64,000 bases of DNA from a virus. Positions within the stretch are counted from its first letter, which is position 1, and each line of letters starts with the position of its first letter. The notes beneath the pieces were generated by a model. That model was not told the origin of the DNA. It did no database searches and saw nothing but the letters and a program-made list of their open reading frames with translations. Location: UHGV virus genome UHGV-1366919. One strand, 5' to 3'. A program made the position numbers and the translations under genes. Positions 7,842-33,994 of this stretch are shown here, piece by piece.

Positions 7842-9002
7842 TTAAAGAGTCACAATAAACCGGCTAATTGAGCCTGGAGCCGTAGACACCGAATATCCCA
7901 AACGTAGGACCAAAGCCAGCATGGCAGCTCGAGAGATCTTATTCTTTCGACCAACACTGCCGCAAAGCTGGGCAATATTAGTTCCTTGAATTATAGTGGG
8001 TCCTCCCAGAAAAACTGGAGACAGAGTACCGTCTTCCCTGTTAACGGAATGATTCTGAATATTTCGTTCAATAGCTTCCCGAGTCTTGGAAATGTTGGCA
8101 GGACTGCACATTTCATCAATTATTCCTTGATTAGAAGCTTCAACATTAACCGGAGTACGATCCTTGGAACATTCCTTAACGTCAATGCCCTCAACCTCTA
8201 CATCAGGAGAAGTATAAGCTTCCTTAATTTCATTAAGGACTTTATATTTGCTTACCCGGCACTTTTGACATTCACAATCAGTAGGAACTGAAACAACATC
8301 TTGAGGATTAACTTCTACAGCAACTACGCGCCTTCCAAAACCCTTAGCATAATCATAAGATCCAACATGCAATCCGGCACTACACCAGTTATTTCGATTT
8401 GCATCAACATCTGCAACTACTACTTCAATGACATCGCCGGGATTATTTCGAATTTGGTAATGCCCGTTTACTTTACCTTGAAGCACTCTGGTTTCGGCAT
8501 TACCATGAAGCGAATACATATCTTCTCCAACACCCTTATAGGCAATAAAGGTACCTTCGGAAGTAATAGGCAATTCCTGATAAGAAAGGAAGTCATAAAG
8601 CTCTTCTCTAGAAGTTTCGGAAGGATTAGCCATCAAGTTATCAATAAACTTAAAGTAATGGGTAAAATCAGTACAACCAGACTTCCAAAGAGAAATAAGC
8701 TTTTTTTGAAGACATTTGGGAAGAATCTGAGTCTTATAAGAAGCAATAGTAGTAATTACACCATTTTCATCTCGTTCAACAAATTGGAGATTATCGTAAT
8801 CTTTAATTGTTTCAGAAACGGAATTAATGATATAAGAAGTGGTATTTTCCTTAAGAAGCCTGAGAAGAGTTTTTTCATCATTGGCCATTACCGCATCGAC
8901 AATATCAGTATAGCGAACATCATCGGGAGTAATCTTAACTGCTCGACCATCAACAAAGAAGGTCCAGCCTGAGGCATTCATAATATATGGAATAGAATTC
9001 AT
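7842..9002 (-). CDS. rIIB: rIIB-like protein
   Basis: Segments HYFKFIDNLMANPSETSREELYDFL...ITSEGTFIAYKGV and CSAGLHVGSYDYAKGF...VNPQDVVSVP align with T4 rIIB (FYFPFLENLLENPSQKAVSRLFDFL...ITEDGYFYAWKVV; CSYGLHLCSKDYVDGF...VNPADVVAVP). Confidence 0.8.
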   Translation of the reverse strand: MNSIPYIMNASGWTFFVDGRAVKITPDDVRYTDIVDAVMANDEKTLLRLLKENTTSYIINSVSETIKDYDNLQFVERDENGVITTIASYKTQILPKCLQKKLISLWKSGCTDFTHYFKFIDNLMANPSETSREELYDFLSYQELPITSEGTFIAYKGVGEDMYSLHGNAETRVLQGKVNGHYQIRNNPGDVIEVVVADVDANRNNWCSAGLHVGSYDYAKGFGRRVVAVEVNPQDVVSVPTDCECQKCRVSKYKVLNEIKEAYTSPDVEVEGIDVKECSKDRTPVNVEASNQGIIDEMCSPANISKTREAIERNIQNHSVNREDGTLSPVFLGGPTIIQGTNIAQLCGSVGRKNKISRAAMLALVLRLGYSVSTAPGSISRFIVTL

Positions 9003-9013
9003 ATTTTGTTTAA

Positions 9014-11371
9014 TTAATATAGTTTATAGTTGAGTTTTTTGAGAATTCGCTTAAAGGTTAATTTAACTTTATCTTTTGTTTGAAATCCTGCACCATTTAA
9101 AACCGCTTGTATTTTTTCTTTTACAGAAGAAGTCATAATATTGGTTGAAATATTATCCAAACAAACTGATGACATAGTATAAAAGAAATTCAATATTTCT
9201 TTATCTGAAAGCTTTTTAATTTCAGCATCAAACTCTCTTTGAATATTATAACATTGATTTGCTAAAATTGAAAGATCAAATATATCCATTATGAATCGGT
9301 TAAATCCTCCTCTATAAAGATTAATTTCATATCTTGTAGAGATAACCGGATAATCAGGAGTCGATGCAGAAATTTTTGGAGCTGTATATCCTGTTACAGA
9401 TTTAAAATCAATATCATAAATCCTGCAGATATTAATGATTTGATCTGGAAGATAAACGAGTTTATGCTTTTTACAATATTCAATATAGGTTTCTTTCCAT
9501 TTAATTTCCATAGCTGAAATGCACCCGAGAGAAACAAATTTATCGTAATGGTTTTTATAAAGCTTTGCTATTCGTTTAATGCCAAAATCTGTACAAAGAT
9601 GAGACTGATAAAGCTGCGTCGGACTATTATAATTAACGAAATTTGTACAAAAGGCCAGATAAGAATTAAGGTAGTTATCATTATTCATGAGCATTGAAGG
9701 ATAAAATACTAACGTATTTTTGTATTCTTTCTCATCAATAATTTCACCGGTATAATAATCCCGGAGAACTACCGCTTCACCATCTGAAGACTTTATTCTT
9801 TTAGGCCTGACATATGTTGAATGCTTAACAATATCAGAATAATTAAACCAATCGATATTTTGCCTAAAGCACGGCTTGTCGTTAAAAGTAAAGGCCGTCC
9901 TTAAATTAAGGAAATTTGCTTTTTCTTCTTCATCTTTAACAAAACAAAAAATATGAGTTCTTCGAAGATCAAAGACTTCTGCTCGATAATCATTCCCCCT
10001 AAGGTGAACAAGATAATTATAAAGGGCATTAATTATTTCACCATAAGGAAGCTTGATAGGATCTTTATCTTGAACGATAAAGATTATTTCACCGTCAAAC
10101 TTCTTAATTGTCGGATTTGAATAAAGGCTTTTCGTTTTAAGATTAATATTAGTAATATTGCCTGAACCTACATAATAATTTTTTGCAACTGAGCAAACAG
10201 TATTCAAATAGCAATCCGGCCATTTAATAATTGAACTATTTCGATAAAATAAAGTACTTTTTGAGTTAGCTTTATTGATAATATCTGAACAAAGTAAATC
10301 ACTGTCAATAAGTTTATCGACATAATCATTAATAGTCTTTTCATAATTTTTATTAATGATTTTAAATTTACCCTTAATCCAATCATTTGTGAAATTGTTT
10401 ATTTCAATCGATTCTCTGGTGGGAGAAATCGGAATTTCACCGCGTTTAAAAAATAAAAGAACGGTACAAGCATTTTTAATGATATTATATTCATTAAAGA
10501 TTTCATTAGGAATATCAATCTTGTAAATGTTATCTCCATCATAAGCATAATAATTACAGCTCTTAAAAAATGAAGAATAAAAAGTATTAGAAGACCAGTT
10601 ATTCGGAATCAGCAAAACTGTATCTTTAATATAAAGAACTCGGGATTTGTCAAGAAATTCTTTATCTCGATACTTTGCAAATCTTGGGGTTTTTTCGTAA
10701 GGGACATAATTTTCCCATTTATCCTCCGGTACGTCTTCAATGTCTATTTTTTCCGGATAACTCCTAAGTTCAATGACAGGTTCATCACTATTGAAGCCAA
10801 AAGTAATATACGCATCCTTGATTAAATCAAGGAACTTGTAATAATCATCAGAATTATTAAGAGGAATCTTTACCTCAATACCCGTATCATTCAAATCACA
10901 GGGTTCAGAATGAATCAAAGAAGCAATAGAATCATTACCATCAATGCTTGAAGAAAATGTATATTTTGTTCCTTCAAATCGAGAAATTACCAAATAAAGG
11001 CCTGTATATGCCGCAGGAGCCTTAGACCCGATTCCAAATCCTCCAATGGATGTATTTTCTTGATTCTTGGTAGATTCAAAATATTGAAAGAAAACTTGAA
11101 AAGTATCTTCTTTGCTAAGACCCCTGGCAAAATCACGAATAGAAAGTTCATTTTTTGTAAGATGAATAGAAACAGGCATTTTAATGCCATATTTTACATG
11201 TTCATCCAAAGCATTGCTTAACGTTTCAAAAAGTGTTGCCTTAAATTTGTCTGAATAGATCCTATCGCGCAAAATAGAAATTGCCATTCCTACGCGCTCG
11301 GCCGAGATAGACTGTTTGACCTGTTCGGCTATACCTCCGCAAATACTTTTATTCTCTTCAAAAACCTTCAT
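9014..11371 (-). CDS. rIIA: rIIA-like protein with N-terminal GHKL ATPase fold
   Basis: TSIGGFGIGSKAPAAYT matches T4 rIIA DFIGGFGLGSKSPFSYT. Lies immediately upstream of rIIB, the same order as in T4. Confidence 0.8.
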   Translation of the reverse strand: MKVFEENKSICGGIAEQVKQSISAERVGMAISILRDRIYSDKFKATLFETLSNALDEHVKYGIKMPVSIHLTKNELSIRDFARGLSKEDTFQVFFQYFESTKNQENTSIGGFGIGSKAPAAYTGLYLVISRFEGTKYTFSSSIDGNDSIASLIHSEPCDLNDTGIEVKIPLNNSDDYYKFLDLIKDAYITFGFNSDEPVIELRSYPEKIDIEDVPEDKWENYVPYEKTPRFAKYRDKEFLDKSRVLYIKDTVLLIPNNWSSNTFYSSFFKSCNYYAYDGDNIYKIDIPNEIFNEYNIIKNACTVLLFFKRGEIPISPTRESIEINNFTNDWIKGKFKIINKNYEKTINDYVDKLIDSDLLCSDIINKANSKSTLFYRNSSIIKWPDCYLNTVCSVAKNYYVGSGNITNINLKTKSLYSNPTIKKFDGEIIFIVQDKDPIKLPYGEIINALYNYLVHLRGNDYRAEVFDLRRTHIFCFVKDEEEKANFLNLRTAFTFNDKPCFRQNIDWFNYSDIVKHSTYVRPKRIKSSDGEAVVLRDYYTGEIIDEKEYKNTLVFYPSMLMNNDNYLNSYLAFCTNFVNYNSPTQLYQSHLCTDFGIKRIAKLYKNHYDKFVSLGCISAMEIKWKETYIEYCKKHKLVYLPDQIINICRIYDIDFKSVTGYTAPKISASTPDYPVISTRYEINLYRGGFNRFIMDIFDLSILANQCYNIQREFDAEIKKLSDKEILNFFYTMSSVCLDNISTNIMTSSVKEKIQAVLNGAGFQTKDKVKLTFKRILKKLNYKLY

Positions 11372-11395: not shown

Positions 11396-12301
11396 CTATA
11401 ATTTTTCTCTAATTTTCTGGAGGTGTTCAGATATTTCTTTTTTAATGGTTTCTGCATTAGTTTTCCATTGGCTGTCCCAAACTTCAATTAAAGTGATTCC
11501 GGCATCTTTACAAAGTTGCCTTTTATTTTCATGATAGCCAGGTTCTTTTTCTTCATGTATTTTATGCCAGTATTCGCCATTATATTCAAGGGCAAGTTTT
11601 AATTCAGGAAGATAAATATCCAATTCTTTTCGACCAATAAATTTTCTTGTATTTTCGAGAATTTCTCCAGGATAAATTGATTTGATAAAATCGCATAACT
11701 CCTTTTCACCCTTAGATTTCTTTTCATGAAGGGCACATTTTAAACATCCCCGCCCAGTTAAGTGATTATACGCCATTTGAGCAAATTTACCATGGACAGG
11801 ACAAATAATAATCACATTTGTTTCTGCATTAATATAAATTGTTTTCGAATAATCGAATTTATGTCCATGCACTTTTTGAGCACGGTTAATAAATTCTTTT
11901 GTGGTTAAACGCTCCAATCCTACGCAACTTTTGCATCCATGCCCCCTTAAATGATTGATGGGATATTGCTGAAAAGGTCCATGAACAGGGCAAATAATAG
12001 GTACTTTTGCATGATTATTTTTATAGTTTACTTTAGAATAATCATATTTGTTCCCATGAACCTCTCTTGCTTTCTTTATAAACTTCTCAGTCGTTAAAGA
12101 TTTTGCATCAACTGCACATTTAAAACATCCCTGACCTCGTAAATGGGCTCCGGCTCTTTGTTGGAAAGGTCCATGAACCGGGCAAATAACAGTTATAGAA
12201 CTATAAGCATTTTTATAATTTACTTCAGAATAATCAAAAAAGTCTCCATGTATTTTTCTAGCCCTGTCAATAAAAATTTCAGTGGTTATTCTGTTGGGCA
12301 T
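11396..12301 (-). CDS. free-standing homing-endonuclease-like protein (paralog 2)
   Basis: 301 aa. Four zinc-ribbon-like repeats (CPVHGPF.Q...HLRG.GC..C) and the C-terminal ELDIYLPELKLALEYNGEYWH module. Inserted between rIIA and GroEL. Confidence 0.65.
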   Translation of the reverse strand: MPNRITTEIFIDRARKIHGDFFDYSEVNYKNAYSSITVICPVHGPFQQRAGAHLRGQGCFKCAVDAKSLTTEKFIKKAREVHGNKYDYSKVNYKNNHAKVPIICPVHGPFQQYPINHLRGHGCKSCVGLERLTTKEFINRAQKVHGHKFDYSKTIYINAETNVIIICPVHGKFAQMAYNHLTGRGCLKCALHEKKSKGEKELCDFIKSIYPGEILENTRKFIGRKELDIYLPELKLALEYNGEYWHKIHEEKEPGYHENKRQLCKDAGITLIEVWDSQWKTNAETIKKEISEHLQKIREKL

Positions 12302-12376: not shown

Positions 12377-13981
12377 TCACTTTTCAGATTGTTCATCAAC
12401 CAAAAATGTTTCTGTTGTTAGAATCAAACCTGCCGATGCAGCGGCGTTTTCAATTGCGCAACGACATACACTAAATGGATCAATAATTCCCGCTTCTAAC
12501 ATGTCTACTAACTTTTGCGTCTTAATATCAAACCCAATACTGCCTTTAGCTTTTGCGACCTTTTCGATGATAACATCCGGCCGTTCAACTCCGGCATTCT
12601 CAAGAAGAGTCTTAAGAGGAATGTCAAGAACCTTTCGCATCAGGTTAATACCAGCATTAAAAGATTCATCCCCTGTTTCAAACTTAATAGACTTATTCTC
12701 TTTAATCTTAGCAAGAACAGATCCTCCCCCTGGAATAACTCCGGATCGTAAAGCTGCTTGACAGGCACATACCGCATCATCTACCCGGTCCTTAATTTCA
12801 TTTAATTCAGATTCAGAATTACCTCCGATATTAAGAACACATACTCCTTGGGCAAGCTTGGCAATTCGCTTATTAAGCACATCTTCTTCCCATGTGCCGG
12901 GACTGCAATTATCTCGTTCCTCCTTAAGCAAATCAATATGTTCTTTAAGCCTTTGAGGATTTCCTCCGCCTTTTAAGAAAGTTGTATATCGTTTATCACA
13001 AACAATCTTTTCACAGGTGGCAAAATCTTCCTCTCTAATAGAATTAAAATCACGTGAAAGAAGTTCAGTAAAATATGTACCTCCTAAAGTAATTTCAAGA
13101 TCTTCCATTTCCCTCTTCATGCCGTCTCCATATCCTGGACACTTAATGGCACAAATGTTAATAATGCCTTTAATCTTATTAATGACAAGAGTTTGAAGAA
13201 CTTCGGATTCAATATCCGGAGCGATAATAAACAAAGGCCTTCCGCGAAGTTCTTTAGTATTAAAGACTTTCTGAAGAATAGGCATAATTTGCTGATTATT
13301 TGTCAATTTAATTCCAGATAAAAGAATTAAGGGATTTTCAAGAATACATTCTTGTTTAGTCGTATTATTGACAAAATAAGAACTCATCCAGCCTCGAGGA
13401 ACTCGTAAACCTGCAATAAACTGAGAAGAAGATTCATTGCTCCTGCTGTCATTAATAGTAATGGAACCATCCAAACCTACTTTTTCAACAGCTTCAGAAA
13501 CAAGATGTGCAATTTCTTTATCCCAGTTGGTAGAAACTAAAGCAATTTGGTGAATCTGTTCTGGAGAACATTCCTGCTTAATATTTTCTTTAATATAGTT
13601 GGCAATTGTCTTTGCCGCTGAAATAACTCCGCGTTGAATTGAAATCGGATTATAACCTGTTTCAATCAGCTTCATGCCTTCAGATGCAATAGCCTCAGTG
13701 AGGATTGCGCTGGTACTGGTCCCATCACCAGCCTGGTGCGCTGATTGCTCGGATGCTTGACGAATAATATCTGCACCCATTTTTTCAAGTACATCAGGCG
13801 GATTTACATGGCGAGCTACTGTAACGCCGTCTTTTGTAATATATGTCGCATTACCCATTCGATATATTACATTTCTACCGCCAGGCCCGAGCGTCGAAGA
13901 AACTGCATTAGCAAGTTTCTTTACACCATTAAGCAGTTTCTTCCTGCCTTCATTTCCCATATAAATGTTTTGTTGAATCAT
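12377..13981 (-). CDS. groEL: phage-encoded GroEL-family (Hsp60) chaperonin
   Basis: 534 aa. TLGPGGRNVI, ITKDGVTVAR, AGDGTSTSAILTEAI and VIPGGGSVLAK match GroEL TLGPKGRNVV, ITKDGVSVAR, AGDGTTTATVLAQAI and VVAGGGVALIR. No C-terminal GGM tail. Confidence 0.9.
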   Translation of the reverse strand: MIQQNIYMGNEGRKKLLNGVKKLANAVSSTLGPGGRNVIYRMGNATYITKDGVTVARHVNPPDVLEKMGADIIRQASEQSAHQAGDGTSTSAILTEAIASEGMKLIETGYNPISIQRGVISAAKTIANYIKENIKQECSPEQIHQIALVSTNWDKEIAHLVSEAVEKVGLDGSITINDSRSNESSSQFIAGLRVPRGWMSSYFVNNTTKQECILENPLILLSGIKLTNNQQIMPILQKVFNTKELRGRPLFIIAPDIESEVLQTLVINKIKGIINICAIKCPGYGDGMKREMEDLEITLGGTYFTELLSRDFNSIREEDFATCEKIVCDKRYTTFLKGGGNPQRLKEHIDLLKEERDNCSPGTWEEDVLNKRIAKLAQGVCVLNIGGNSESELNEIKDRVDDAVCACQAALRSGVIPGGGSVLAKIKENKSIKFETGDESFNAGINLMRKVLDIPLKTLLENAGVERPDVIIEKVAKAKGSIGFDIKTQKLVDMLEAGIIDPFSVCRCAIENAAASAGLILTTETFLVDEQSEK

Positions 13982-14003
13982 GATTTACAATTATTATAGC
14001 ATG
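13978..14003. repeat. copy B of imperfect 26-bp direct repeat flanking the HEG at 13978..15069
   Basis: tcatgatttacaattattatagcatg. 21/26 identical to 15066..15091 tcacgatttttaatcattatagcacg. Both copies contain TGcTATAAT and end at a start codon (GroEL ATG / HEG GTG). Confidence 0.6.
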
Positions 14004-15069
14004 TTTCTTTGATAAACTTTTTTAATTTTTCCTTATTCTTTCGCCACTGAGTATCTAAAATTTCTATTAATTTTATACCTTTTTTCTCACAATCTTTTTT
14101 CTTTTGAACATGATAGCCTGGATATTTTTCTTCCTTTAACTTATGATGGTAATCACCGTTGTATTCAAAGGCTAGATTTAATTCAGGAAGATAAACATCA
14201 AGTTCTTTTTTTCCAATAATATCTCTTGGGTTTTCTTGAACCTCGCCTGGATAAATTGATTTAATATATTGACAAAGTTCTATTTCACCTTTAGATCTTT
14301 TTGATGCCGCTAAGCATTTAGGGCAACCGCTTCCGCGTAGATGCGTATTGGGCAACTGTAAAAATGGGCCATGTTTTTTACAAGTTATAATAATTTTTGT
14401 TTTTGCATTTTTATAAGCTACCAAAGAATAATCATACTTGTCTCCGTGAGTAGCTCTAGCTTTTTCTATAAATGCTTCAATAGTTCTCTTATTATTTCCG
14501 GCACAAAATGGGCAGCCGGAGCCTGAAAAATGCTTATCAGGGCGTTGTTCAAAAACTCCATGTATGGGACATATAATTTTTACTTTTGTTCTTTTATTTT
14601 TATAAATTACTAAAGAATAATCATATTTGGTTCCATGAACTTCAATAAATCTTTTTCTAATCTCTTCCTCAGTTAAAAACTGATTTTTAATTGCACATTT
14701 TTTACATCCTTTTCCTATTAAATGGCTTGATGGATCTTGCTTAAGAGTACAACCACATTTATTACATTTTATGATTACCTCGGTTGTTGAATTTATATAA
14801 TCAACTAAAGAATAATCATATCGGCCTTTCCCATGAATTTCTTCAGCTTTTTCTATAAATTCTTCTGTAGTCCTGTTAAATCCTTTACATTTAGGACAAC
14901 CATGGCCCATTAAATGAATGTTGGGAATTTGCTCAAAGTAGCCATGTATGGGACAAAATATTTTAATTAATGTTTTTGTGTTAAAATATACAACTTCAGA
15001 ATAACCATACTTATTGCCATGTATTTCAATAGCTTTTTTAATAAACTCTTTAGTTGTTAATCTTTTCAC
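13978..15069 (-). CDS. free-standing homing-endonuclease-like protein (paralog 3), GTG start, overlaps GroEL start codon
   Basis: 363 aa. Five repeat units and the C-terminal ELDVYLPELNLAFEYNGDYHH module. Its 3' end overlaps the GroEL ATG (ATGA overlap). Confidence 0.65.
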   Translation of the reverse strand: MKRLTTKEFIKKAIEIHGNKYGYSEVVYFNTKTLIKIFCPIHGYFEQIPNIHLMGHGCPKCKGFNRTTEEFIEKAEEIHGKGRYDYSLVDYINSTTEVIIKCNKCGCTLKQDPSSHLIGKGCKKCAIKNQFLTEEEIRKRFIEVHGTKYDYSLVIYKNKRTKVKIICPIHGVFEQRPDKHFSGSGCPFCAGNNKRTIEAFIEKARATHGDKYDYSLVAYKNAKTKIIITCKKHGPFLQLPNTHLRGSGCPKCLAASKRSKGEIELCQYIKSIYPGEVQENPRDIIGKKELDVYLPELNLAFEYNGDYHHKLKEEKYPGYHVQKKKDCEKKGIKLIEILDTQWRKNKEKLKKFIKETCYNNCKS

Positions 15070-15091
15070 GATTTTTAATCATTATAGCACG
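15066..15091. repeat. copy A of imperfect 26-bp direct repeat immediately 5' of the HEG start
   Basis: See 13978..14003. Confidence 0.6.
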
Positions 15092-15228
15092 AATTAATAA
15101 ATTTCTGCCCGCAATTTGAATCTAAATCTTCGAAAGATATGGAATTACCGCAAGGAAGATGCTTATATTGAACAGGAAAATATCCTTTCTGGCAGCAGCA
15201 AGAAGACAGAAGAAATATTACTAATAAT

Positions 15229-15651
15229 TTAACCCCAAGTGAATAATCCATAACCCCAGAACCGGCTTATATTAGGAAGAGGATTTGGTGTTTCTTCAAG
15301 GAAAATAGTCTGACCGGGATGCCGCTTTTCATATACTTGCTTTACAAGGAAAATAATAAGAGGTATAAAAAAGTCCAATATAAAATGAACGTTATCTGTC
15401 TGTCCCTGTAAAATATTTTCTATGAGGTCAAATTTATTTTCTTTGAGATAATCAATTAGTTCAGGCGGAAGAATATCATCTTCACCGGCGGCAAAAATAT
15501 TATCGTCAAAATCAAATCCTAGTTCAGATTTAATGCCATCTAAACATTCTTCAAATTCTTCTTTAGTAAGATCAGTCTTTAACCATACTATATCTCTTTC
15601 ATCATGTCCGTCTCCAGACAAATCGCCATATTCAAAACTAAAAATATTCAT
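15229..15651 (-). CDS. acidic hypothetical protein
   Basis: 140 aa, D/E-rich N-terminal half. Confidence 0.4.
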   Translation of the reverse strand: MNIFSFEYGDLSGDGHDERDIVWLKTDLTKEEFEECLDGIKSELGFDFDDNIFAAGEDDILPPELIDYLKENKFDLIENILQGQTDNVHFILDFFIPLIIFLVKQVYEKRHPGQTIFLEETPNPLPNISRFWGYGLFTWG

Positions 15652-15663
15652 ATCAATATAAAT

Positions 15664-15707
15664 GGAAATTCCGCCTAATATTAAATTAGGCGGAATTTCT
15701 TTATTTG
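15664..15707. terminator. perfect 15-bp hairpin between SPFH gene and downstream gene
   Basis: ggaaattccgcctaat / attaggcggaatttc with a 4-nt loop, followed by tttatttg on the + strand. Confidence 0.4.
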
Positions 15708-15711
15708 TTAA

Positions 15712-16761
15712 TTAATTACCAGCAGGTTTAAAATCCGCAATATTCAGAACCTTAAACAAACCATCATTTTGATTAGCTCCTCCCATAATCAGCATTGAAG
15801 GAAGTTTAATATCTTTGAAAGATTCAAAAAACTTAATTCGAGCATAATTACTTCCCATTGCTGCATTCAATTCTCGAATTGCTTCAGCTTCAAGCTTCTT
15901 ACCTTGAGCTTCTGCAGTCTTCATAGCAAGAAGAGCTTCTGCTTCATTTTTCTTTTGAGCAAGCATGGCCAAAGACTCTTGTTCTCGGCGATACCTTGCA
16001 GCATCAGATTCAGCCTTAGCCTGAAGAAGCTTACCTTGAGCTTCTGCAGCCATCTTATTGGCAATTGCCCGGCCTTCTGCATTAGCAATCTCTTCGGAAC
16101 GCTTTGCAATTTCAAGCTGGGTAGCCTGGCGTTCATATTCCTGAGTAGCCTCAACCTTCTTAGTAATACCAAGAGTCACCGATTCAGGCGGAATAGTGGA
16201 ACCAATAGTTACACTTTCAACAATAAATGGAGTACCATTAAGTTGCTTCTTAAGGTTAGTCTCTACCATCTTGGTGATTTCCGGAATCCGGGAAGGAGCT
16301 TCTAGGCCTTTAAACTTAGCAATAGCAGATCGTACTTCAGTACGGAAAGGTTGCTGAATAAATGAAGCATAAGCATCTTGAGCAATAGCTTCCGGGCTTC
16401 GAGCTGTTTCAGAGATAGCTCCATAATTTTCAACAAATTCCTTTACTTTTTCACTGTCGATACGATAAACAAGATAAGATTCAGCCTTCATCTTAAGTTG
16501 GTCCGAACTGCGGACATCATCAAAAGTTTCAGTCTGAGTATAAGGAGTTACGCAAATCTTAATAGAATTCTGCCTCCATACCATACCTGTACTACCGGGT
16601 CCTTTAATTACTTGTTTAAATTCCTTCGAACCAAATATTGGTTCGGAATAAACATAACCCGCATAACCGCCATCAATTTTTTCATTTGAAAAATTAACGG
16701 CAAAAATAATAGCCGCAACAATGGCAATAATTAGAAATAGAGCTGCAAAAAAATCCTTCAT
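15712..16761 (-). CDS. SPFH/band-7 (HflK/flotillin-like) membrane protein
   Basis: N-terminal transmembrane helix (FFAALFLIIAIVAAIIFAV), SPFH-like core, long Ala/Glu/Gln coiled coil (EAQGKLLQAKAESDAARYRRE...). Confidence 0.65.
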   Translation of the reverse strand: MKDFFAALFLIIAIVAAIIFAVNFSNEKIDGGYAGYVYSEPIFGSKEFKQVIKGPGSTGMVWRQNSIKICVTPYTQTETFDDVRSSDQLKMKAESYLVYRIDSEKVKEFVENYGAISETARSPEAIAQDAYASFIQQPFRTEVRSAIAKFKGLEAPSRIPEITKMVETNLKKQLNGTPFIVESVTIGSTIPPESVTLGITKKVEATQEYERQATQLEIAKRSEEIANAEGRAIANKMAAEAQGKLLQAKAESDAARYRREQESLAMLAQKKNEAEALLAMKTAEAQGKKLEAEAIRELNAAMGSNYARIKFFESFKDIKLPSMLIMGGANQNDGLFKVLNIADFKPAGN

Positions 16762-16808
16762 GTTTTATTTTCTTTTTATTTTTTATGTGACTAATATTAA
16801 TATTAATA

Positions 16809-17258
16809 TTATACAGAAATATTATTAATAACTGGAATTCCAACCACTGGAATCTTGGTCTTTAACTTAATCTTATAATCCCCCACAACTAAATCCTTTG
16901 CTTTTATCTTAGAAATAGCATTGGAAACCGTAGTGATATTATATTTTTTACCTCGTTGAGACTTCACAACATCGATAAGATTTCGTTCAACTGCCAACTG
17001 AACTTCTGAATCACTAAGTTCCTCAGGAGCTTGAATAATTACATAAGAACGATCTTGAAATTGTTCGACTTCTGTATCATCCAAAACAATCGGCATTACA
17101 AGAAATCGATTTTTAACTCGATTTTTCTTTTCGGTCAATTCTTTCTCTTGCTCAACAAGAGCCTTTGCTTCCTCCAGAATAATTTTTTGTTTATCCTGAG
17201 GTACTTTAGAAGCCGCAAGAATCATCTCAAGGTCTTCAATATCAATTTTTAGTGCCAT
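16809..17258 (-). CDS. hypothetical protein
   Basis: 149 aa. Confidence 0.4.
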   Translation of the reverse strand: MALKIDIEDLEMILAASKVPQDKQKIILEEAKALVEQEKELTEKKNRVKNRFLVMPIVLDDTEVEQFQDRSYVIIQAPEELSDSEVQLAVERNLIDVVKSQRGKKYNITTVSNAISKIKAKDLVVGDYKIKLKTKIPVVGIPVINNISV

Positions 17259-17261
17259 AGT

Positions 17262-17828
17262 TTATATTTGATATGTGATTAAATCCGTTGTCAATTTATT
17301 AATTGTTTCAATAAATGCTACCGGGATAGCTTCTTCAATTTTTAGTAAAAGTAATTTTAAGTTCTCATTAACTTTAGGGCCAAATAAAATATATTGAGTA
17401 TCATTGTTTAAATCGACAGAATAAGCTTTAAAATTTGCTTGATTAAAACTTATAACTGTAAATCTATCAACAATTAAATTGTTTTTTAAAAAAGTCTCTC
17501 TGACAAAATTCTCAAGATCTCTGGAATAAATTCCTCTATGATGATCTACTTCTACTTCAATTAAAAAAGATTGATTTATATCAATAAAGTGGTCAAATGA
17601 AGCTATTCCTAAAGTATTCCACCAAGTAAAATACCTTTCATTAAGGCCATTCTTTACTTTAATGATTTTGCTTTTATTGGCAAATGGAGAGTAAATTGTA
17701 AAAGCATGTTTAAAATCTTCAATAGTCCTGTAAGCAGGATCTTCAAAGAATTCTTCTTCAAATAAATCGACTTGGTAAGTTTTACCATTACCAAGTCGAT
17801 CAATAAGTTTGAAAACTGCTTGTTTCAT
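17262..17828 (-). CDS. hypothetical protein
   Basis: 188 aa, 1-nt overlap with next gene. Confidence 0.4.
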   Translation of the reverse strand: MKQAVFKLIDRLGNGKTYQVDLFEEEFFEDPAYRTIEDFKHAFTIYSPFANKSKIIKVKNGLNERYFTWWNTLGIASFDHFIDINQSFLIEVEVDHHRGIYSRDLENFVRETFLKNNLIVDRFTVISFNQANFKAYSVDLNNDTQYILFGPKVNENLKLLLLKIEEAIPVAFIETINKLTTDLITYQI

Positions 17829-18502
17829 TAACTCTCAGCAACACGAGCCTTCAAACGGGCAAGAGCATCTTCTTTAGATACAGATTCAATAAATTCATTC
17901 ATTTCATCTTTAGTATCATTAAGAGTTCCGCTTACTTCAATTGAAGCATCGGCCTTAGAATCTTTCTTTTCAAGAATCTTATCTACATCTGCCAGCATCC
18001 CGTTAAAATCATTTTTGCCTGAAATATTCGCAATATCCTTCAAAGCAGCAAGATCTTCCTTCATAGCAGCAGATGCAGCCTTCAACTTAATCTGTTCAAT
18101 TCGAGAATCATAAGAATTAAGAACAACTCTTTGATTACTAATCAACTTATCATAAGTTGCAGTTGCTTCTTCAAGAGCCTTTTCAGCCATATCAAGCTGT
18201 GCCTTAGTATTTTCATATTGAAGAGAAAATTCGGCGGCAAGACTTTCCTTGCCATTCTTAAGAGCAAGAATGGCTCGTTCATTGAGAACTTGAACCTTTT
18301 GCTTAAGACTCTTTACATTTTTAGTCATGTTGTTTACTGTAGTCTTTACAGCAACCAATCGTTCATAAATTTCTTGCTCGGCCTTGCTCTTTTCATCTTC
18401 GAGAGACGCAATAAGAGCATCAACATTCTTACTTTCAAGTGAATTTACACCAAGATTAAGCCAGCCAAACAAAACACGTCCCAAACGTCCAATAATTCTC
18501 AT
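17828..18502 (-). CDS. PspA/IM30 (Vipp1)-like coiled-coil protein
   Basis: N-terminus MRIIGRLGRVLFGWLNLGVNSLESKNVDAL parallels PspA [25 protein letters not shown]. Predicted all-helical coiled coil of about 220 aa. Confidence 0.5.
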   Translation of the reverse strand: MRIIGRLGRVLFGWLNLGVNSLESKNVDALIASLEDEKSKAEQEIYERLVAVKTTVNNMTKNVKSLKQKVQVLNERAILALKNGKESLAAEFSLQYENTKAQLDMAEKALEEATATYDKLISNQRVVLNSYDSRIEQIKLKAASAAMKEDLAALKDIANISGKNDFNGMLADVDKILEKKDSKADASIEVSGTLNDTKDEMNEFIESVSKEDALARLKARVAES

Positions 18503-18508
18503 ATATTT

Positions 18509-18778
18509 TTAAATTTTAATTTTTTGATTTTCGTCCAAATATTTGTATTCGTTAAGTATTACAAATTGATTTTTAATACTTTCTTTATCCCAATTAACTC
18601 CAATTTCTTTGAATTTATTAACGCTTAATTTAATTTCAGTCTGCCCGTTTCTTATTAACCAAAACTTGGCTTTTTCATCAATTGTTATTTCTCCATCAGA
18701 AGGAATTAAAGTATGGTAATAATTTTCAAGAAATGCTTTTTGATTGCGCGTCCAAAGCCATTTAGGATAATCAAGCAT
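18509..18778 (-). CDS. hypothetical protein
   Basis: 89 aa. Confidence 0.35.
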   Translation of the reverse strand: MLDYPKWLWTRNQKAFLENYYHTLIPSDGEITIDEKAKFWLIRNGQTEIKLSVNKFKEIGVNWDKESIKNQFVILNEYKYLDENQKIKI

Positions 18779-18806
18779 ATTAAAATAATAAACTTTTACT
18801 ATTCTT

Positions 18807-18820
18807 TTAAAGGTGATTAA
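18807..18820 (-). promoter_or_regulatory. conserved upstream motif, about 29 nt 5' of 18509..18778
   Basis: + strand ttaaaggtgattaa. Confidence 0.4.
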
Positions 18821-19281
18821 TTTCCTGCGTATTCAACTAAAAGAACAGAAATATCATGCTTTGTTCGAAAATTATACAAAAGATTTTCAAATTCTTTTGG
18901 TTTTACTCGTCCTATACCGCATCCCAAAAAAGGCATTACAACAGTATTAAGATGATGAGTGTTCATAACTTCAAACAAATCGCAAAGAGACAAAGAAATA
19001 TCTCCCAAATTTGCTATTGAACCAGGATAAAACATGGTTGGAACATTGGCAATCATTTTCCAATTATCTTCATCGGACAAATAAAAATAATGGCCTTTAC
19101 CAATATTAACCATTTTAGAATTACAAGAGTTCTGATAACTCCAGTACATTTCAGGAAATTTATCGGCAAAAGCTTTTGCAACTCCTGCTCCCATTACTCC
19201 GATACAATTGACGGCATTGCAAATTACATCCGCCTTTGTATCAAAGATATTTCCTTTTGTTTTAATAACTTTAAGAGACAT
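18817..19281 (-). CDS. macro-domain (ADP-ribose binding/processing) protein
   Basis: GNIFDTKADVICNAVNCIGVMGAGVAKAF matches the macro-domain signature (..ADaIVNAAN..l..GgGVa.ai). Confidence 0.7.
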   Translation of the reverse strand: MSLKVIKTKGNIFDTKADVICNAVNCIGVMGAGVAKAFADKFPEMYWSYQNSCNSKMVNIGKGHYFYLSDEDNWKMIANVPTMFYPGSIANLGDISLSLCDLFEVMNTHHLNTVVMPFLGCGIGRVKPKEFENLLYNFRTKHDISVLLVEYAGN

Positions 19282-19586
19282 TATAACTCTGGTTCATATT
19301 CAATATTACGAAGAATGAATTCTTCCAACCATTCTTGTGAAAGAACTCCAGTGTAGGATTCAAGCTTGTCATAGTTCTCATCACAAGCAACAAAAGTAGG
19401 AACAGATCGAATTTCGAACTTTTTAACATAAGGCATTGCCGAATTATCCTGATCGACAACAAAACTCATGAATTCGATTTCAGGATCTTTTTTATATTTT
19501 TCAACTACACGTTCCCAGGCTGGTTTCATCATACGGCATGGACCACATGTAGAAGAAGAAAAAAGTAAAAATTTAGTCATTATCAA
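19281..19586 (-). CDS. thioredoxin-fold protein (CGPC active site)
   Basis: FSSSTCGPCRMMKP contains the canonical CGPC dithiol motif. 101 aa. Confidence 0.7.
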   Translation of the reverse strand: MIMTKFLLFSSSTCGPCRMMKPAWERVVEKYKKDPEIEFMSFVVDQDNSAMPYVKKFEIRSVPTFVACDENYDKLESYTGVLSQEWLEEFILRNIEYEPEL

Positions 19587-19797
19587 AAATAATAATAGTT
19601 AGTAGAGCGATAATTCCCCCGAAAATAATTCCAAGAATAGTAGCAGCAATAGAAATCCAAGTTGGAGAAAATAACTGAATCCAATTCCAATTAGTAAAAG
19701 GCTCATAACCAAACCAATACCAAAATAGAATCATCATCTGAAGAAATCCTCCAACAGATAAACCATTATTAATAGCTTTATTTGTTATATTCTTCAT
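19573..19797 (-). CDS. small membrane protein
   Basis: 74 aa with two hydrophobic helices. Confidence 0.4.
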   Translation of the reverse strand: MKNITNKAINNGLSVGGFLQMMILFWYWFGYEPFTNWNWIQLFSPTWISIAATILGIIFGGIIALLTIIIFDND

Positions 19798-19819
19798 TAA
19801 AAATATAATATGAAAATTC

Positions 19820-20155
19820 TTAGTTATCGAAAGTGCTCAACTCTGAAGTTTGAAGTTCTGCATTCCAAATTGGTTTCCAACTATATTTGTCATCATAAGG
19901 AGTCATAGGAATAATCCTGGGAGCTTCTTTATTATTAATAACTTTTTCTTTATTAATAATATCTTGAGCCTCTTTATAACATTTCTCCATAATAGATGAA
20001 ATATTATCAGACTTAATAGTTGCTATCGGCTTCTTTTCCTCTTCAATAATAATATTAATAATCTTCCTAAGTTTAAAATCTGACAACTTGGAAAGATCAA
20101 TTTGTTTTACCATTTTGATAAGGATTTCTCTTTGAGTTTCAGTTTCCGAGCTCAT
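19820..20155 (-). CDS. hypothetical protein
   Basis: 111 aa. Confidence 0.35.
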   Translation of the reverse strand: MSSETETQREILIKMVKQIDLSKLSDFKLRKIINIIIEEEKKPIATIKSDNISSIMEKCYKEAQDIINKEKVINNKEAPRIIPMTPYDDKYSWKPIWNAELQTSELSTFDN

Positions 20156-20369
20156 CTTTAAATTTGTTTAAAAGTTTTTGTTGCTGTTCTTTTGTCAAGG
20201 AATTAAAGAATTTAAGAAAAGGATTTTCTCGAATCTTCTTAAATTCTTCCCCAATAGTCTTGAATGTTTCATCAAGCTCTTTTTTGAAATTAGAAATTTC
20301 GGCCGATTGAATCTTTTTTCGAAGATCTTCTACTGGTTTTGGATCACGTGGTTTAAATTTTAAGCTCAT
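20139..20369 (-). CDS. hypothetical protein
   Basis: 76 aa, lysine-rich. Confidence 0.3.
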   Translation of the reverse strand: MSLKFKPRDPKPVEDLRKKIQSAEISNFKKELDETFKTIGEEFKKIRENPFLKFFNSLTKEQQQKLLNKFKDELGN

Positions 20370-20671
20370 GAATATTTTCCGTTTCTTTTCTTAATGGTTC
20401 TTAATTCTTGAATACTAGCTAATTCTTTTTCTTCGTTAATATAATAATTAAAAATTAACTTTGCAGCTTTATATTGTGCATCCATATCATTCCATTTATA
20501 TGGAAAAATCGCAAGAATTGTATTCCCTGTAATTATTCTAAATTCAGAATTAAAATGAACTCCTCCCCAATCATCGACATAACTATCTTCAAATCTAACT
20601 AATTCAATCGATCCCGATTTTTTGTCGTGCTTCTCTATATTTTTCATCAATTTTTTTCGAGGATTTCTCAA
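20366..20671 (-). CDS. hypothetical protein
   Basis: 101 aa. Confidence 0.35.
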   Translation of the reverse strand: MRNPRKKLMKNIEKHDKKSGSIELVRFEDSYVDDWGGVHFNSEFRIITGNTILAIFPYKWNDMDAQYKAAKLIFNYYINEEKELASIQELRTIKKRNGKYS

Positions 20672-20936
20672 GAAATGCTTTTATCTTATCTTCAAAAAGA
20701 CTTTCAAGACAAATTATTAATGCCACTAATAATGATATAGGCCAAAATATAGATAAGAATAATTTAAAAAATAAAGATTCCTTTATTCCTTCATATAAAA
20801 AACAATATAAAAAACTAAATGGATGCTTTATTGCTTTTTTAAAACTAAAATTTAAATTAAAATCTATAAAATCATAAAGATTAAATCCTAAAAAAGATAA
20901 AAAAGCAATAATGATATATCCTGCTAATATATTCAT
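20604..20936 (-). CDS. hypothetical membrane protein
   Basis: 110 aa, hydrophobic. Overlaps previous ORF by 68 nt, so the start may be further downstream. Confidence 0.3.
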   Translation of the reverse strand: MNILAGYIIIAFLSFLGFNLYDFIDFNLNFSFKKAIKHPFSFLYCFLYEGIKESLFFKLFLSIFWPISLLVALIICLESLFEDKIKAFLEKSSKKIDEKYREARQKIGID

Positions 20937-27658: not shown

Positions 27659-28207
27659 TCAATTATCCATGGTGTTTTGCCATCTTATAAATTTCTCAAT
27701 AGCGAGCCTGTAATCACCTACTGTATGAATTTCTAATTGAGCTGGAATAAATTTCCAAAGCAGATAAAGACTGCTAATATCTGAAAAATAGGTATCATGA
27801 TAAATGTCCATCAATTCTTCAATATAAAAAATAGAACGGTAGACAACTTTGGAATATTTTAAAAGCGTATCATAAAGCATACTTCCGCCAATGCAAACCA
27901 CCTCTTCTTCGGAATCTTTAAATTTATCTATAAAATCGCATATATTAATTTTAATAACATTATCAGGCAGATTAAGAGGCAAATCCCGGGAAGTAATAAT
28001 AAAATGATTTAAGCGATTTTTTAAAGGTTTAAAATTCAAACTTTCAAAAGTGTTATAACCCATCACAACACTTTTTCCTTCGGTAACATTTTTAAAATGT
28101 TCCATATCTCTTCTAGCTATTTCTTTATATTTTTGACCTTTCCAGGGAAGAGAATTTTTATGTCCAATAGAACCATTGGGAAGCATTGCAAAAATTGAAG
28201 AAATCAT
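27659..28207 (-). CDS. frd: dihydrofolate reductase
   Basis: LPW, VVMGYNTFESL, IGG motifs. Immediately upstream of td, as in T4 (frd-td). Confidence 0.75.
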   Translation of the reverse strand: MISSIFAMLPNGSIGHKNSLPWKGQKYKEIARRDMEHFKNVTEGKSVVMGYNTFESLNFKPLKNRLNHFIITSRDLPLNLPDNVIKINICDFIDKFKDSEEEVVCIGGSMLYDTLLKYSKVVYRSIFYIEELMDIYHDTYFSDISSLYLLWKFIPAQLEIHTVGDYRLAIEKFIRWQNTMDN

Positions 28208-28275: not shown

Positions 28276-28917
28276 ATGAATAGCTATAGTTACGATGAGG
28301 AGAAAGATAAATGGGGGGCAGAATTAGTTGCAACTAAGGACCGTATAGCTAGACGAATTTATTCAACAAAAGATTATTACTATTGTTGCTGGAAAATGGC
28401 AAGGCATGGATTATTAATTCTTGATTACCGGGGGTTAATTATAGATGTTAACCCGTATTTTTGTGAAAAAATTGGATATTCTCGAGAAGAATTATTGGGA
28501 AAAAATATTAATGATTTTTGTGTTAAAGCTGAAGATCTTCATGCTTCTGATTCTATTAATATTTTAACTTTACTTCAATCGATTAATCAACAAAGTACAA
28601 ATCAATGCGAATTAAAAACTAAAGAAACTAAATTATTTCGTGTAAGATGGGTCGCAACCAGAATTCCAGCATCATTATCTAGTCCATTCTCACATAGTTT
28701 AGTATGTGTATACTTTTTAAGTGAAACTAATTATTCTAAAATTATTGATGAGATTAATAAAATTAAAAAGAAAGAATCGAATATCCTTTGGAAGATACTC
28801 GATTCTCTTTGGGCAAAATGCTTAATTTTTTTAATTATTATTCTTACAGCTATTGGTGGAAGTTTACCAGATATTGTCTCAAAGATAATATCTTTATTTG
28901 CAAATTCTCCACTTTAA
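28276..28917 (+). CDS. membrane-anchored protein with PAS-like N-terminal domain
   Basis: HGLLILDYRGLIIDVNPYFCEKIGYSREELLGKNINDF resembles a PAS sensory fold. C-terminal hydrophobic helix LIFLIIILTAIGGSL. Confidence 0.35.
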   Translation: MNSYSYDEEKDKWGAELVATKDRIARRIYSTKDYYYCCWKMARHGLLILDYRGLIIDVNPYFCEKIGYSREELLGKNINDFCVKAEDLHASDSINILTLLQSINQQSTNQCELKTKETKLFRVRWVATRIPASLSSPFSHSLVCVYFLSETNYSKIIDEINKIKKKESNILWKILDSLWAKCLIFLIIILTAIGGSLPDIVSKIISLFANSPL

Positions 28918-32464: not shown

Positions 32465-33994
32465 ATGAACCTTTCTTTATTGACAGTATTATGTCATGGC
32501 AAAAATAATAGCCAACTTAAAGAATTATTAAAAAATAATAAAATATTAAATTTTATTAATACTTTTATTAAAGATAAACCTTATTATGAAACACCCTTTA
32601 GATTTTTAAAATTGTTGAGTAAAAATGCAACATTACCTGCCTGTATTATATGTGGAAATATTATTTCTTATAGTATTTGGAATAGACGTAATAATGCTAA
32701 ATTTTGTTCTAAAACTTGCAAATATTCTAAAGAAGGTAAAGAAAATACTAGAAAAAATATTGAAAAAACATTAATTGAAAAATATAAGGTTAAAAATATT
32801 TTACAACATAAAAAGTTTAAAGAAAAACAAGAATTAACTTGTTTAGCAAAATACGGAACTAAATTTTATTCAAAAACTTCAGAATGTAAAGAAAAAGTTA
32901 AGAAGACGTCATTAGAAAAATTTGGTACAAATAATGTGATGTTCAATAAAAAGGTTTTAAAAAATATAAAAAATAATAATTTATTAAAATTTGGGGTTGA
33001 ATGGCCTTTATCAGATAAAACTATTCATAAAAAAACTATGAATAGTCTTGTTAAAAAACATTTAGAAAAGCTTAAAAAGTTTAATTTAACTTTGTTAGAT
33101 GAATATCAATCCACAAAAGAATACTATAATTTTAAATGTGCTACATGTGGTAATACATTTAAAGATCATTTAAAAAATGGTAGAATTCCTATATGCAAAC
33201 ATTGCTTTCCTTCTAATACTTCTATTGGGGAAAAAGAATTATCAAACTTTATTAAACAATTTTCTTCTAATATTAGCTTAAATGATAGAACATTAATAAA
33301 TCCTTTAGAATTAGATATTGTTATTCCAGAAAAACATTTAGCAATAGAATTTAATGGGCTATATTGGCATTCTGAAGAACATGGTAAAAATGAAAATTAT
33401 CATATTAATAAATCATTATTATGTAAATCTAAAAACTTTAATTTAATTCATATATTTGAAGATGAATGGCTTTTTCAAAAAAATATAATAAAAGGTATTA
33501 TAAAAGATTATTTTAATAGCAAAAAAATAAAAACAAATTTTATTACATTTAAAAAAATCGATAATAAATTAGCTAAAAAATTTAATGAAAAATATAATAT
33601 TCTTGGACATATTACTACAAAAAATAATTTTGGACTTTTTTATAAAAATAGATTAATACATGTATTATCTGTTGGAAAACCAAGATTTAATAAAATTTAC
33701 AAATATGAAATTTATCGATTATCCTCAACATTTAATTTTAAAATTGAAAATTATTTTAAAGTTTTAATTGATAATTTACCTTTATCAATTAAAGAATCAT
33801 TAATATTTTATGAAAATAAACGTTTTCCTATTATTAATAAAACATTATTAGATAATTTGATATTTTTATCAAATTCTAAGCCAAGCTATTTTTTTGTCAA
33901 AAATAAAAATAGATATTCAAAATATAATAAAATAAATAGATTTGATTATAAAATTTGGGATTGCGGATCAACACTTTATCAGGTTAAATATTAA
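32465..33994 (+). CDS. divergent homing-endonuclease-like protein (paralog 6) with C-terminal extension
   Basis: 509 aa. Cys-pair zinc-ribbon repeats. Shares GEKELSNFIKQF...ELDIVIPEKHLAIEFNGLYWH...FNLIHIFEDEW with the other paralogs. Confidence 0.5.
   Translation: MNLSLLTVLCHGKNNSQLKELLKNNKILNFINTFIKDKPYYETPFRFLKLLSKNATLPACIICGNIISYSIWNRRNNAKFCSKTCKYSKEGKENTRKNIEKTLIEKYKVKNILQHKKFKEKQELTCLAKYGTKFYSKTSECKEKVKKTSLEKFGTNNVMFNKKVLKNIKNNNLLKFGVEWPLSDKTIHKKTMNSLVKKHLEKLKKFNLTLLDEYQSTKEYYNFKCATCGNTFKDHLKNGRIPICKHCFPSNTSIGEKELSNFIKQFSSNISLNDRTLINPLELDIVIPEKHLAIEFNGLYWHSEEHGKNENYHINKSLLCKSKNFNLIHIFEDEWLFQKNIIKGIIKDYFNSKKIKTNFITFKKIDNKLAKKFNEKYNILGHITTKNNFGLFYKNRLIHVLSVGKPRFNKIYKYEIYRLSSTFNFKIENYFKVLIDNLPLSIKESLIFYENKRFPIINKTLLDNLIFLSNSKPSYFFVKNKNRYSKYNKINRFDYKIWDCGSTLYQVKY

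Follow-up and report, generated by a model that had tools for sequence, protein, structure and literature searches.

In bacteria, PspA serves in membrane stabilization and in maintenance of the proton-motive force (PMF) (Ravi et al., PMC11237479; Scholz et al., PMC8581546), and the neighbourhoods in which its gene is found include proteins that combine a transmembrane (TM) segment, a Band-7 domain and a coiled coil, small partners such as the CesT/Tir-like and PspAA proteins and, in Cyanobacteria and Actinobacteria, thioredoxins (Trx) in dyads with PspA (Ravi et al., PMC11237479). In Bacillus subtilis, PspA is functionally linked to the SPFH protein YdjI, which is itself cytosolic and needs the membrane proteins YdjG and YdjH (Scholz et al., PMC8581546). 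As regards phages, a pspA-like gene beside terD has been mentioned in passing in the Jug gut jumbo phages (PMC12880540), and an entry in BFVD/UniProt assigns a 'PspA/IM30 family protein' to Acinetobacter phage vB_AbaM_ME3. Here we describe a block of seven genes on the minus strand (positions 15712–19586) of a 64,000-nt stretch of the virus genome UHGV-1366919; the stretch at its full length is referred to below as the window. An earlier note, made from the letters of the window, had read the block as a tightly packed, co-directional run encoding an SPFH/Band-7 protein, a PspA/IM30-like protein, a macro domain and a CGPC thioredoxin, and had not recognized the combination as one described in phages. 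Given the Jug and ME3 entries that last statement needs tempering: PspA-like genes, though rare, have been noted in phages before, and the combination is unrecognized rather than unprecedented.

The reading we prefer, and hold with middling confidence, is that the block comprises the last seven genes of a long array, in which a conserved dyad of PspA and a small protein of 89 aa (u89) is accompanied by separable accessory genes, and that it is not an obligate module. Listing of the open reading frames (ORFs) returned all seven minus-strand ORFs with coordinates identical to those in the earlier note. From the upstream end they encode a thioredoxin with a CGPC motif (19281–19586; 101 aa from a TTG start), a stand-alone macrodomain of the DarG/AdfM family in which the catalytic lysine is absent (18817–19281; 154 aa), u89 (18509–18778), a PspA/IM30 homologue of the ESCRT-III superfamily (17828–18502; 224 aa), the lineage-specific soluble proteins u188 (17262–17828; 188 aa) and u149 (16809–17258; 149 aa), which lie between PspA and SPFH, and an SPFH/Band-7 protein with an N-terminal anchor and a coiled coil (15712–16761; 349 aa). 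u89, u188 and u149 matched no Pfam, PHROGs, NCBIfam or PADLOC family, and u188 and u149 no PDB entry either; the AlphaFold2 (AF2) model of u89, built on an alignment of four sequences, was unusable (pLDDT 47.5).

Gene contexts were obtained for all six phage-type PspA clusters, and a single further locus (L008, a 196-kb IMG/VR contig) was added by a scan with an alignment of SPFH proteins. The order in the window lineage is ligase ... tm74–Trx–Macro–u89–PspA–u188–u149–SPFH–hairpin–u140 ... GroEL ... rIIA–rIIB, and it is invariant among strains, including the position of u188, save for mobile endonuclease genes and a TnpB insertion in one strain (L013). Lineage L003 has the order ligase–u76 ... 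dCMP deaminase–tm74–Trx–u89–PspA–103-aa ORF–GroEL ... rIIA–rIIB, and macro, SPFH, u188 and u149 were not found in its neighbourhood. The order in L005/L006 is ligase ... Macro (41% identity)–u89 (34%)–PspA–SPFH (66%)–HNH ... GroEL; in L006 the SPFH gene begins 9 nt past PspA, whereas in the window two inserted genes part them. L004 carries PspA with no detectable u89 or SPFH, L009 and L011 carry it in unrelated phage-like contexts with neither u89 nor SPFH, and L008 encodes an SPFH protein 48% identical to that of the window with no PspA within 7 kb. Identity to the window PspA is 41% in L003, 36% in L004 and 27% in L005/L006. These lineages have backbone genes in common with the window, to varying degree; L009, L011 and L008 have nothing in common with it except the gene named.

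In the window lineage, L003 and L005/L006 the gene immediately upstream of PspA is u89 (28–36% identity), and among 5.8 billion proteins u89 is confined to these three lineages. The recurring unit is thus u89 plus PspA, which three of the six phage-type PspA clusters have. Two lineages have SPFH after PspA and two have macro ahead of u89, which makes SPFH and macro frequent but separable neighbours, and u188 and u149 are lineage-specific inserts that were not found in L003–L006. As a set, the seven genes do not form a fixed module: of the module originally proposed, the order Macro–u89–PspA–SPFH recurs in L005/L006, but L003, L004, L008, L009 and L011 each break the set.

Nor is co-directionality a trait of the block. 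From near 28.2 kb down to 0.5 kb, an array of ~28 kb, essentially every gene lies on the minus strand, so that the upstream boundary at 19586 is arbitrary. The tight packing does stand: the junctions from Trx to SPFH are, in order, a 1-nt overlap, a 38-nt gap, a 6-nt gap, a 1-nt overlap, a 3-nt gap and a 47-nt gap, and there is no space for a promoter from the ligase gene through SPFH. A scan for promoter consensus sites was uninformative (31 sites against 29.6 expected). The sole real boundary is probably a downstream hairpin (15665–15699, minus strand; RNA fold and terminator scan), which would close the transcription unit as a terminator or RNA-stability element. This perfect 15-bp hairpin starts 12 nt past the SPFH stop and is terminator-like on both strands, its tail being only moderately U-rich; its predicted RNA fold has a dG of −24.1 kcal/mol (z=−6.55), which none of 200 shuffles equalled. 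Across the seven genes, the ratios of non-synonymous to synonymous polymorphism (pN/pS), calculated from 8–12 strain variants, were 0.03 for SPFH, 0.04 for u149, 0.23 for u188, 0.04 for PspA, 0.03 for u89, 0.04 for macro and 0.10 for Trx, as compared with 0.05 for GroEL and 0.07 for ligase in the same strain set. Values of 0.03–0.23 denote strong purifying selection on all seven, which are therefore real genes.

The alternative that fares best against these data, though we think it rather unlikely, is that the block is a gathering of unrelated accessory genes (morons) in a plastic early region, with PspA serving in the timing or sealing of holin lesions, in membrane remodelling (vesicles or compartments) or in countering membrane-targeting defence. 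The gene content of the relatives is indeed mosaic, homing endonucleases and TnpB come and go in this region, and other phage PspA-like genes occur in other contexts, as beside terD in the Jug phages (PMC12880540); that SPFH is 66% identical and PspA 27% identical between the same lineages also suggests that the two are under different constraints. However, the pairing of u89 with PspA is conserved, and the overlaps and gaps of 1–6 nt imply co-translation of at least Trx with Macro and of u89, PspA, u188 and u149. Moreover, the repeated association of bacterial PspA with Band-7 proteins and Trx makes it less likely that all three types of partner came together purely by accident.

The SPFH protein matches Pfam Band_7 (PF01145) at E=1.7e-17 (64.5 bits against a cutoff of 23.6), and its layout is that of a hydrophobic anchor at about residues 4–22 (within a hydrophobic N-terminus, 1–29), an SPFH domain (28–216) and an Ala/Glu-rich coiled coil; the Ala/Glu-rich region at about 200–300 gives weak matches to the coiled coils of HflK and FloT (NCBIfam E about 0.04). 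The protein also matches phrog_200 (4.8e-28), a family annotated 'lipoprotein', and its orthologues start with MKIAPIVPVVAVLGLASAIFVAC (L006, 66% identity) and MKKIIAGVVTGVILLLTTIFLSC (L008, 48%), followed in both cases by N; their lipoboxes, IFVAC and IFLSC, respectively, are canonical, with the Cys at position 23 and at the same aligned site. The only match to SPFH among GenBank phages was the 'HflC membrane protease regulator' of Staphylococcus phage Terranova (26.6% identity). Judged from these sequence features, the SPFH and coiled-coil part of the protein is most likely extracytoplasmic, on the opposite membrane face from PspA. Neither a TM segment nor a signal sequence is predicted for PspA, u89, u188 or u149, and an extracytoplasmic SPFH protein together with a PspA that has no export signal argues against direct recruitment of PspA in the manner of YdjI.

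We therefore consider it improbable that the whole run, or PspA with SPFH, forms one co-adapted membrane-protection module in which SPFH recruits or organizes PspA as YdjI does and u188 and u149 act as adaptors in the place of YdjG and YdjH. The order PspA–two small genes–SPFH does mirror pspA-ydjG-ydjH-ydjI (PMC8581546), Band-7 proteins are recurrent neighbours of bacterial PspA (PMC11237479), the block is invariant among strains with a single hairpin at its end, and a second lineage has PspA and SPFH side by side even though its PspA is only 27% identical. Yet neither u188 nor u149 has a TM segment, a zinc ribbon or a TPM domain, and neither was found in the other lineage with PspA next to SPFH, four PspA lineages have no neighbouring SPFH, and the SPFH protein of L008 has no neighbouring PspA. 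The two lineages in which this adjacency is seen have the entire backbone in common as well (ligase, u76, macro and GroEL), so that the adjacency may be simply inherited, and inheritance alone would suffice to explain it. PspA with Band-7 is a documented gene neighbourhood in bacteria (PMC11237479, PMC8581546), but the comparison lends no support to direct cooperation of PspA with SPFH in this phage, whose SPFH orthologues bear a lipobox and whose SPFH domain is probably across the membrane, YdjI being cytosolic.

The 17828–18502 product, which is central to the preferred reading, matches Pfam PspA_IM30 (PF04012) at E=1.4e-7 over profile positions 5–217 of 220. When 1.84 billion representatives were searched exhaustively with phmmer, only 31 matched, among them the five other phage-type PspA clusters at 26–42% identity, a further tail at ~25% and bacterial members of PF04012 at E-values from 1e-8 to 1e-4. 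In a 25-sequence alignment of phage and bacterial proteins made from these matches, 23 members match PF04012, and when compared with the PDB the profile of this alignment matched Nostoc Vipp1 (6ZVR) end to end (E=1.2e-15), and also Synechocystis PspA and Escherichia coli PspA. The alignment with Vipp1 is collinear (1–241 against 1–237) and takes in helix a0 and the conserved Glu behind it. An AF2 model (pLDDT 80) has a0 at residues 3–17, hairpin helices at 27–82 and 86–158 (pLDDT 93–98) and a further helical part at 166–223, and in a Foldseek search of the PDB with this model ranks 1–13 were all Vipp1 or PspA entries (E 3e-4 to 1e-2), followed by Snf7 and CdvB. Residues 2–19, which include a0, are amphipathic and cationic, with a hydrophobic moment (muH) of 0.63, reached by 0.8% of shuffles, and a net charge of +3; the muH of Nostoc Vipp1 a0 is 0.61. 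The length of the protein is conserved among lineages (221–235 aa). On the strength of the model and these alignments we think that 17828–18502 carries a PspA/ESCRT-III-like fold, with an a1/a2-3 hairpin followed by a4–a5, as the earlier note had suspected, so that the check which the note itself set for this point does not refute it; its calls of a Band-7/SPFH protein, a macro domain and a CGPC thioredoxin likewise agree with Pfam matches.

With the window PspA as query, tblastn of GenBank phages found no match at 1e-3 and noise only at E=10; tblastn with a bacterial PspA (P0131) found no match either, and no PHROGs family matched any of eight PspAs. When IMG/VR was scanned with PspA and SPFH of the window and with P0123, P0124 and P0127, no further lineage came up: each scan gave back the contig from which the window comes (3300045988_182131) or nothing. 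One metagenome scan returned the same lineage only (97–100% identity).

Several points weigh against our reading. The PF04012 score of 31.8 bits lies below the gathering cutoff of 33.9 (the collection's precomputed annotation assigns PF04012 to the identical protein). A profile of the six phage-clade PspAs alone reached no PspA or Vipp1 in the PDB, nor did a single-sequence phmmer search of the PDB with the window PspA, so that the link to PspA rests on the Pfam match, the phmmer matches to bacterial PF04012 members and the AF2 model, and the multiple sequence alignment behind that model contained bacterial PspAs. The Foldseek E-values are modest and the TM-scores ~0.5, as expected for long helical hairpins, the fold type most liable to spurious similarity. 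As for SPFH, the window protein keeps the hydrophobic leader but has lost the lipobox Cys (AIIFAVN), and its topology is therefore predicted from the orthologues and the hydrophobic N-terminus only. Finally, the contigs of the relatives are 5–20 kb long, so that SPFH and macro, where given as absent, are missing from the neighbourhood and need not be missing from the rest of the genome. A generic long coiled coil of scaffold or structural type, like PspA in composition and leaving the block no membrane-stress role beyond that of SPFH, would accord with the sub-threshold Pfam score, with the phage-only profile matching just unrelated coiled coils in the PDB, with a weak PADLOC match to the LmuB coiled coil and with weak BFVD matches, but we regard it as very unlikely in the face of collinear, end-to-end matches to both PF04012 and Vipp1 that include a0 and the following Glu, of the 23 PF04012-matching members of the alignment, of 13 PspA/Vipp1 entries outranking every other coiled coil in Foldseek, and of the conserved length and amphipathic, cationic a0.

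Under the dyad-plus-accessory reading, the array would consist of co-directional early and accessory genes of a gut myovirus of ~200 kb, carrying rIIA/B, GroEL, ligase and nucleotide-metabolism genes. We hypothesize that PspA, expressed early and remaining cytoplasmic, uses its amphipathic, cationic a0 to attach to the inner leaflet of the host's cytoplasmic membrane and oligomerizes there, and that it may thereby limit ion leakage and preserve the PMF through a long infection. The stress could come from the phage's own membrane proteins, from superinfection or from membrane-permeabilizing abortive-infection effectors, and PspA would help in each case. u89 might be a lineage-restricted partner of PspA, whether regulator, chaperone or adaptor. 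The SPFH protein, N-terminally anchored and presumably facing the periplasm as HflK/C do, would act independently or from the opposite face, with no direct recruitment of PspA. A different role, in lysis inhibition linked to rIIA and rIIB, had been suggested for the PspA–SPFH pair. The two rII genes do lie near the block (rIIA at 9014–11371 and rIIB at 7842–9002), but the suggestion comes down to proximity, and GroEL, two homing endonuclease genes and two small ORFs (u140 and s58) lie between SPFH and rIIA.

The dyad also differs from its surroundings in divergence. Between the window and L006, PspA is 27% and u89 34% identical, as against 66% for SPFH and 52–60% for ligase and GroEL; this would mean much faster evolution of PspA and u89, or else their exchange.

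The macrodomain matches Pfam Macro (E=9.6e-12), the NCBIfam model antitoxin_DarG (1.6e-29, over positions 4–145 of 338 only) and PADLOC DarG (1.1e-30, macrodomain only); its best PDB matches are 5M3I (1.6e-17), 5M31 and 7OMU, of which 5M3I and 5M31 are DarG macrodomains (PMC5179494). It is also 28.5% identical (E=9e-9) to PhiKZ gp104, that is AdfM, an anti-DarT2 DNA de-ADP-ribosylase that removes DarT2 ADP-ribose from DNA (PMC13309987). In TaqDarG, the loop T79-K80-K81-H82-W83 holds the catalytic lysine, and the K80A mutant is inactive (PMC5179494). K80 aligns with M83 of the window protein, in the loop P81-T82-M83-F84-Y85-P86-G87, and the stretch from 76 to 126 contains no Lys, the next being at 127. 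The Met is also present at this site in L006; FPTK is kept in DarG, AdfM, TH37 and LR756511 (a 595-kb uncultured phage). Of the ADP-ribose-binding residues (numbered as in PMC5179494), N25 (equivalent to TaqDarG N22) and G120, G122 and G124 (equivalent to G117, G119 and G121) are retained, and TaqDarG N120 is replaced by Ile. As the catalytic Lys is missing, ADP-ribosyl-DNA hydrolase activity is not to be assumed. A role in ADP-ribose counter-defence, as first proposed, is reasonable at the level of the DarG/AdfM family, but the hydrolase chemistry is doubtful; the Lys-less protein probably binds ADP-ribose, or may hydrolyse it by different chemistry, in counter-defence. A Lys-less FYPG loop was also seen in orf021 of Kuttervirus Cba120 (L021), and Kuttervirus/Ackermannviridae comprise well over 100 Salmonella and Escherichia phage records, which points to Lys-less FYPG macrodomains as a widespread phage subgroup distinct from AdfM, at least as far as loop sequences can tell. 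Within the macro ORF, ARAGORN called an 88-nt tRNA-Asp(GTC) at 19024–19111 (minus strand); it is most likely a false positive, with no Rfam tRNA match to this interval at E<=0.1 and with the overlapping macro ORF under purifying selection.

The thioredoxin matches Pfam Thioredoxin (PF00085) at E=9.6e-13 (48.5 bits against a cutoff of 23.5), NCBIfam thioredoxin at 2e-9 and phrog_22, with CGPC at residues 14–17. Gene calls in sister strains start it two codons in, at the ATG at 19580, which gives 99 aa. Thioredoxins of phrog_22 are very common in phages and usually serve nucleotide reduction, and the window protein would most simply be a general CGPC redox carrier for nucleotide metabolism. A redox link between Trx and PspA, as proposed for the cyanobacterial Trx–PspA dyads, is possible; in L003 the thioredoxin (34% identity) adjoins u89–PspA. 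Its start is overlapped by tm74 (19573–19797, minus strand), a protein of 74 aa with a hydrophobic C-terminal half that is kept at the same place in L003 (34% identity), and tm74 and Trx may be a unit of their own.

The phage itself is an AT-rich myovirus (~31% GC) with a genome of 201–206 kb that encodes TerL, a tail sheath, a tape measure, rIIA/rIIB, GroEL, an ATP-dependent ligase, ThyA and DHFR. In the index of the collection, 2,084 sample blocks contain the identical PspA sequence, with contig titles that say human gut, and megablast with the block found no DNA-level relatives among GenBank phages. One NCBI copy of the phage was binned with a 'Candidatus Gastranaerophilales' metagenome-assembled genome, which is a hint at the host only. 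Gastranaerophilales fall within the non-photosynthetic sister lineage of Cyanobacteria.

Downstream of the block, the GroEL-type chaperonin (12377–13981, minus strand) is full-length at 534 aa, matches phrog_5725 (2.4e-131) and is ~52% identical to its counterparts in the L003 and L006 lineages. DUF723/HNH homing-endonuclease genes (phrog_559) lie at 11396–12301, 13978–15069, 32465–33994 and 48362–49711, and the copies that flank GroEL vary among near-identical strains, being present, absent or of other length: L016 and L018 lack the 363-aa copy, and in L014 a 364-aa version replaces the 301-aa one. In strain L013, a 370-aa TnpB/Cas12f-like gene of the IS605 family (8529–9641) sits between the macro and u89 orthologues, a break that is evidently tolerated, and the macro protein of this strain has an altered C-terminus and 160 aa. 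Strain L016 has an OrfB_IS605 gene just beyond rIIB (19784–20675). Together, the two insertions indicate that IS200/605-type elements are active in the phage population.

Directly past the hairpin, u140 (15229–15651, minus strand) has a hydrophobic segment at residues 85–108 and overlaps by 23 nt a 58-aa ORF, s58 (15075–15251, minus strand), which has a signal-like N-terminus, a lipobox-like LLSSC and further Cys residues. From these features s58 could be a small lipoprotein, and the two genes might form a spanin-like or exclusion-like arrangement. The pS of u140 (0.11) is the second-highest of the set, behind that of Trx (0.13). At the upstream end of the array, a divergent 213-aa ORF (28276–28917, plus strand) adjoins DHFR (27659–28207, minus strand) and has weak PAS-domain matches in the precomputed annotation of sister strains; a PAS sensor would be unusual in a phage.

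PspA, Vipp1 and ESCRT-III belong to a universal machinery of membrane repair and remodelling, and the 'phage shock' response takes its name from the host's reaction to phage proteins. That a phage whose genome is indexed in more than 2,000 sample blocks should carry a PspA of its own, and that selection should conserve it so strongly, suggests that maintenance of an intact host membrane is a selectable viral function. The phage also offers, in u89–PspA, a minimal unit of two genes. It is interesting to speculate, although we would give the idea little weight, that PspA, u89 and an outward-facing SPFH protein make up an active counter-defence or membrane-engineering system of a prevalent gut jumbo phage, which could seal or pre-empt lesions from pore-forming abortive-infection effectors or superinfecting phages, or build infection-specific structures in the host membrane. 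If true, membrane repair would have to be counted as a new class of anti-defence in phages. In addition, the comparison corrects three easy assumptions, namely that the run is one operon-like module, that the SPFH protein touches PspA (it probably does not) and that a DarG-like macrodomain must be a DNA de-ADP-ribosylase of the AdfM type.

How does the locus compare with other phage-borne pspA-like genes? BLAST and hidden Markov model (HMM) comparisons detected no similarity between the window PspA clade and these genes, and the company differs: TerD in the Jug phages and ME3, but u89, SPFH and Trx here. In ME3, ME3_293 was considered as the listed PspA and rejected, being equal in length to the BFVD entry but vWA-TerF-like; PspA and SPFH HMMs found no match at 140–235 kb; and ME3_238, a 229-aa coiled coil, reached an hhalign probability of 7%, so that the ME3 gene was not located. 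ME3_238 lies two genes from a 481-aa AAA ATPase (ME3_236), an arrangement that recalls ESCRT-III/Vps4 or PspA/AAA+ pairs. ME3 also has a TerD/TerC/vWA-TerF cluster near a gene annotated 'Appr-1-p processing', which has no Pfam match at E<=0.001; the cluster and the ME3_238 region lie in the stretches 183400–185731 and 212421–218392 of its genome (KU935715).

Among characterized macrodomains, the window protein is homologous to AdfM and DarG and, with its equivalent of N22 and its Gly-rich phosphate loop, resembles them in its retained binding residues; it stands alone, and it differs from AdfM (K78) and TaqDarG (K80) in the replacement of the catalytic Lys, with PTMFYPG in place of FPTKKHW. 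The SPFH protein resembles HflK/HflC in its single N-terminal anchor, SPFH domain, long Ala/Glu-rich coiled coil and predicted extracytoplasmic orientation, but it is encoded by a single gene, has lipoprotein orthologues, is not known to be linked to FtsH and matches NCBIfam hflK negligibly; it is also unlike the cytosolic YdjI in that, to judge by the orthologue lipobox, it appears to be exported. Two small genes stand between PspA and SPFH, as in pspA-ydjG-ydjH-ydjI, but YdjG has zinc ribbons and a TM segment and YdjH a TPM domain and a TM segment, features that u188 and u149 lack. By position, the small gene directly upstream of the phage PspA recalls the CesT/Tir–PspA and PspAA dyads, although u89 matches neither model. 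A CGPC thioredoxin just upstream of PspA likewise recalls the cyanobacterial and actinobacterial Trx–PspA dyads; in the window the macro gene intervenes and the arrangement is not a strict dyad. Bacterial PspA operons differ from the block in that the latter is phage-encoded and contains no regulator (PspF, Lia or PspC), but as in those operons PspA is co-directional with, and near to, a membrane-anchored Band-7 protein bearing a C-terminal coiled coil. With a Band-7 protein, a small partner and a thioredoxin all present, the most fitting description of the block is that of a PSP-type neighbourhood in a phage-borne variant.

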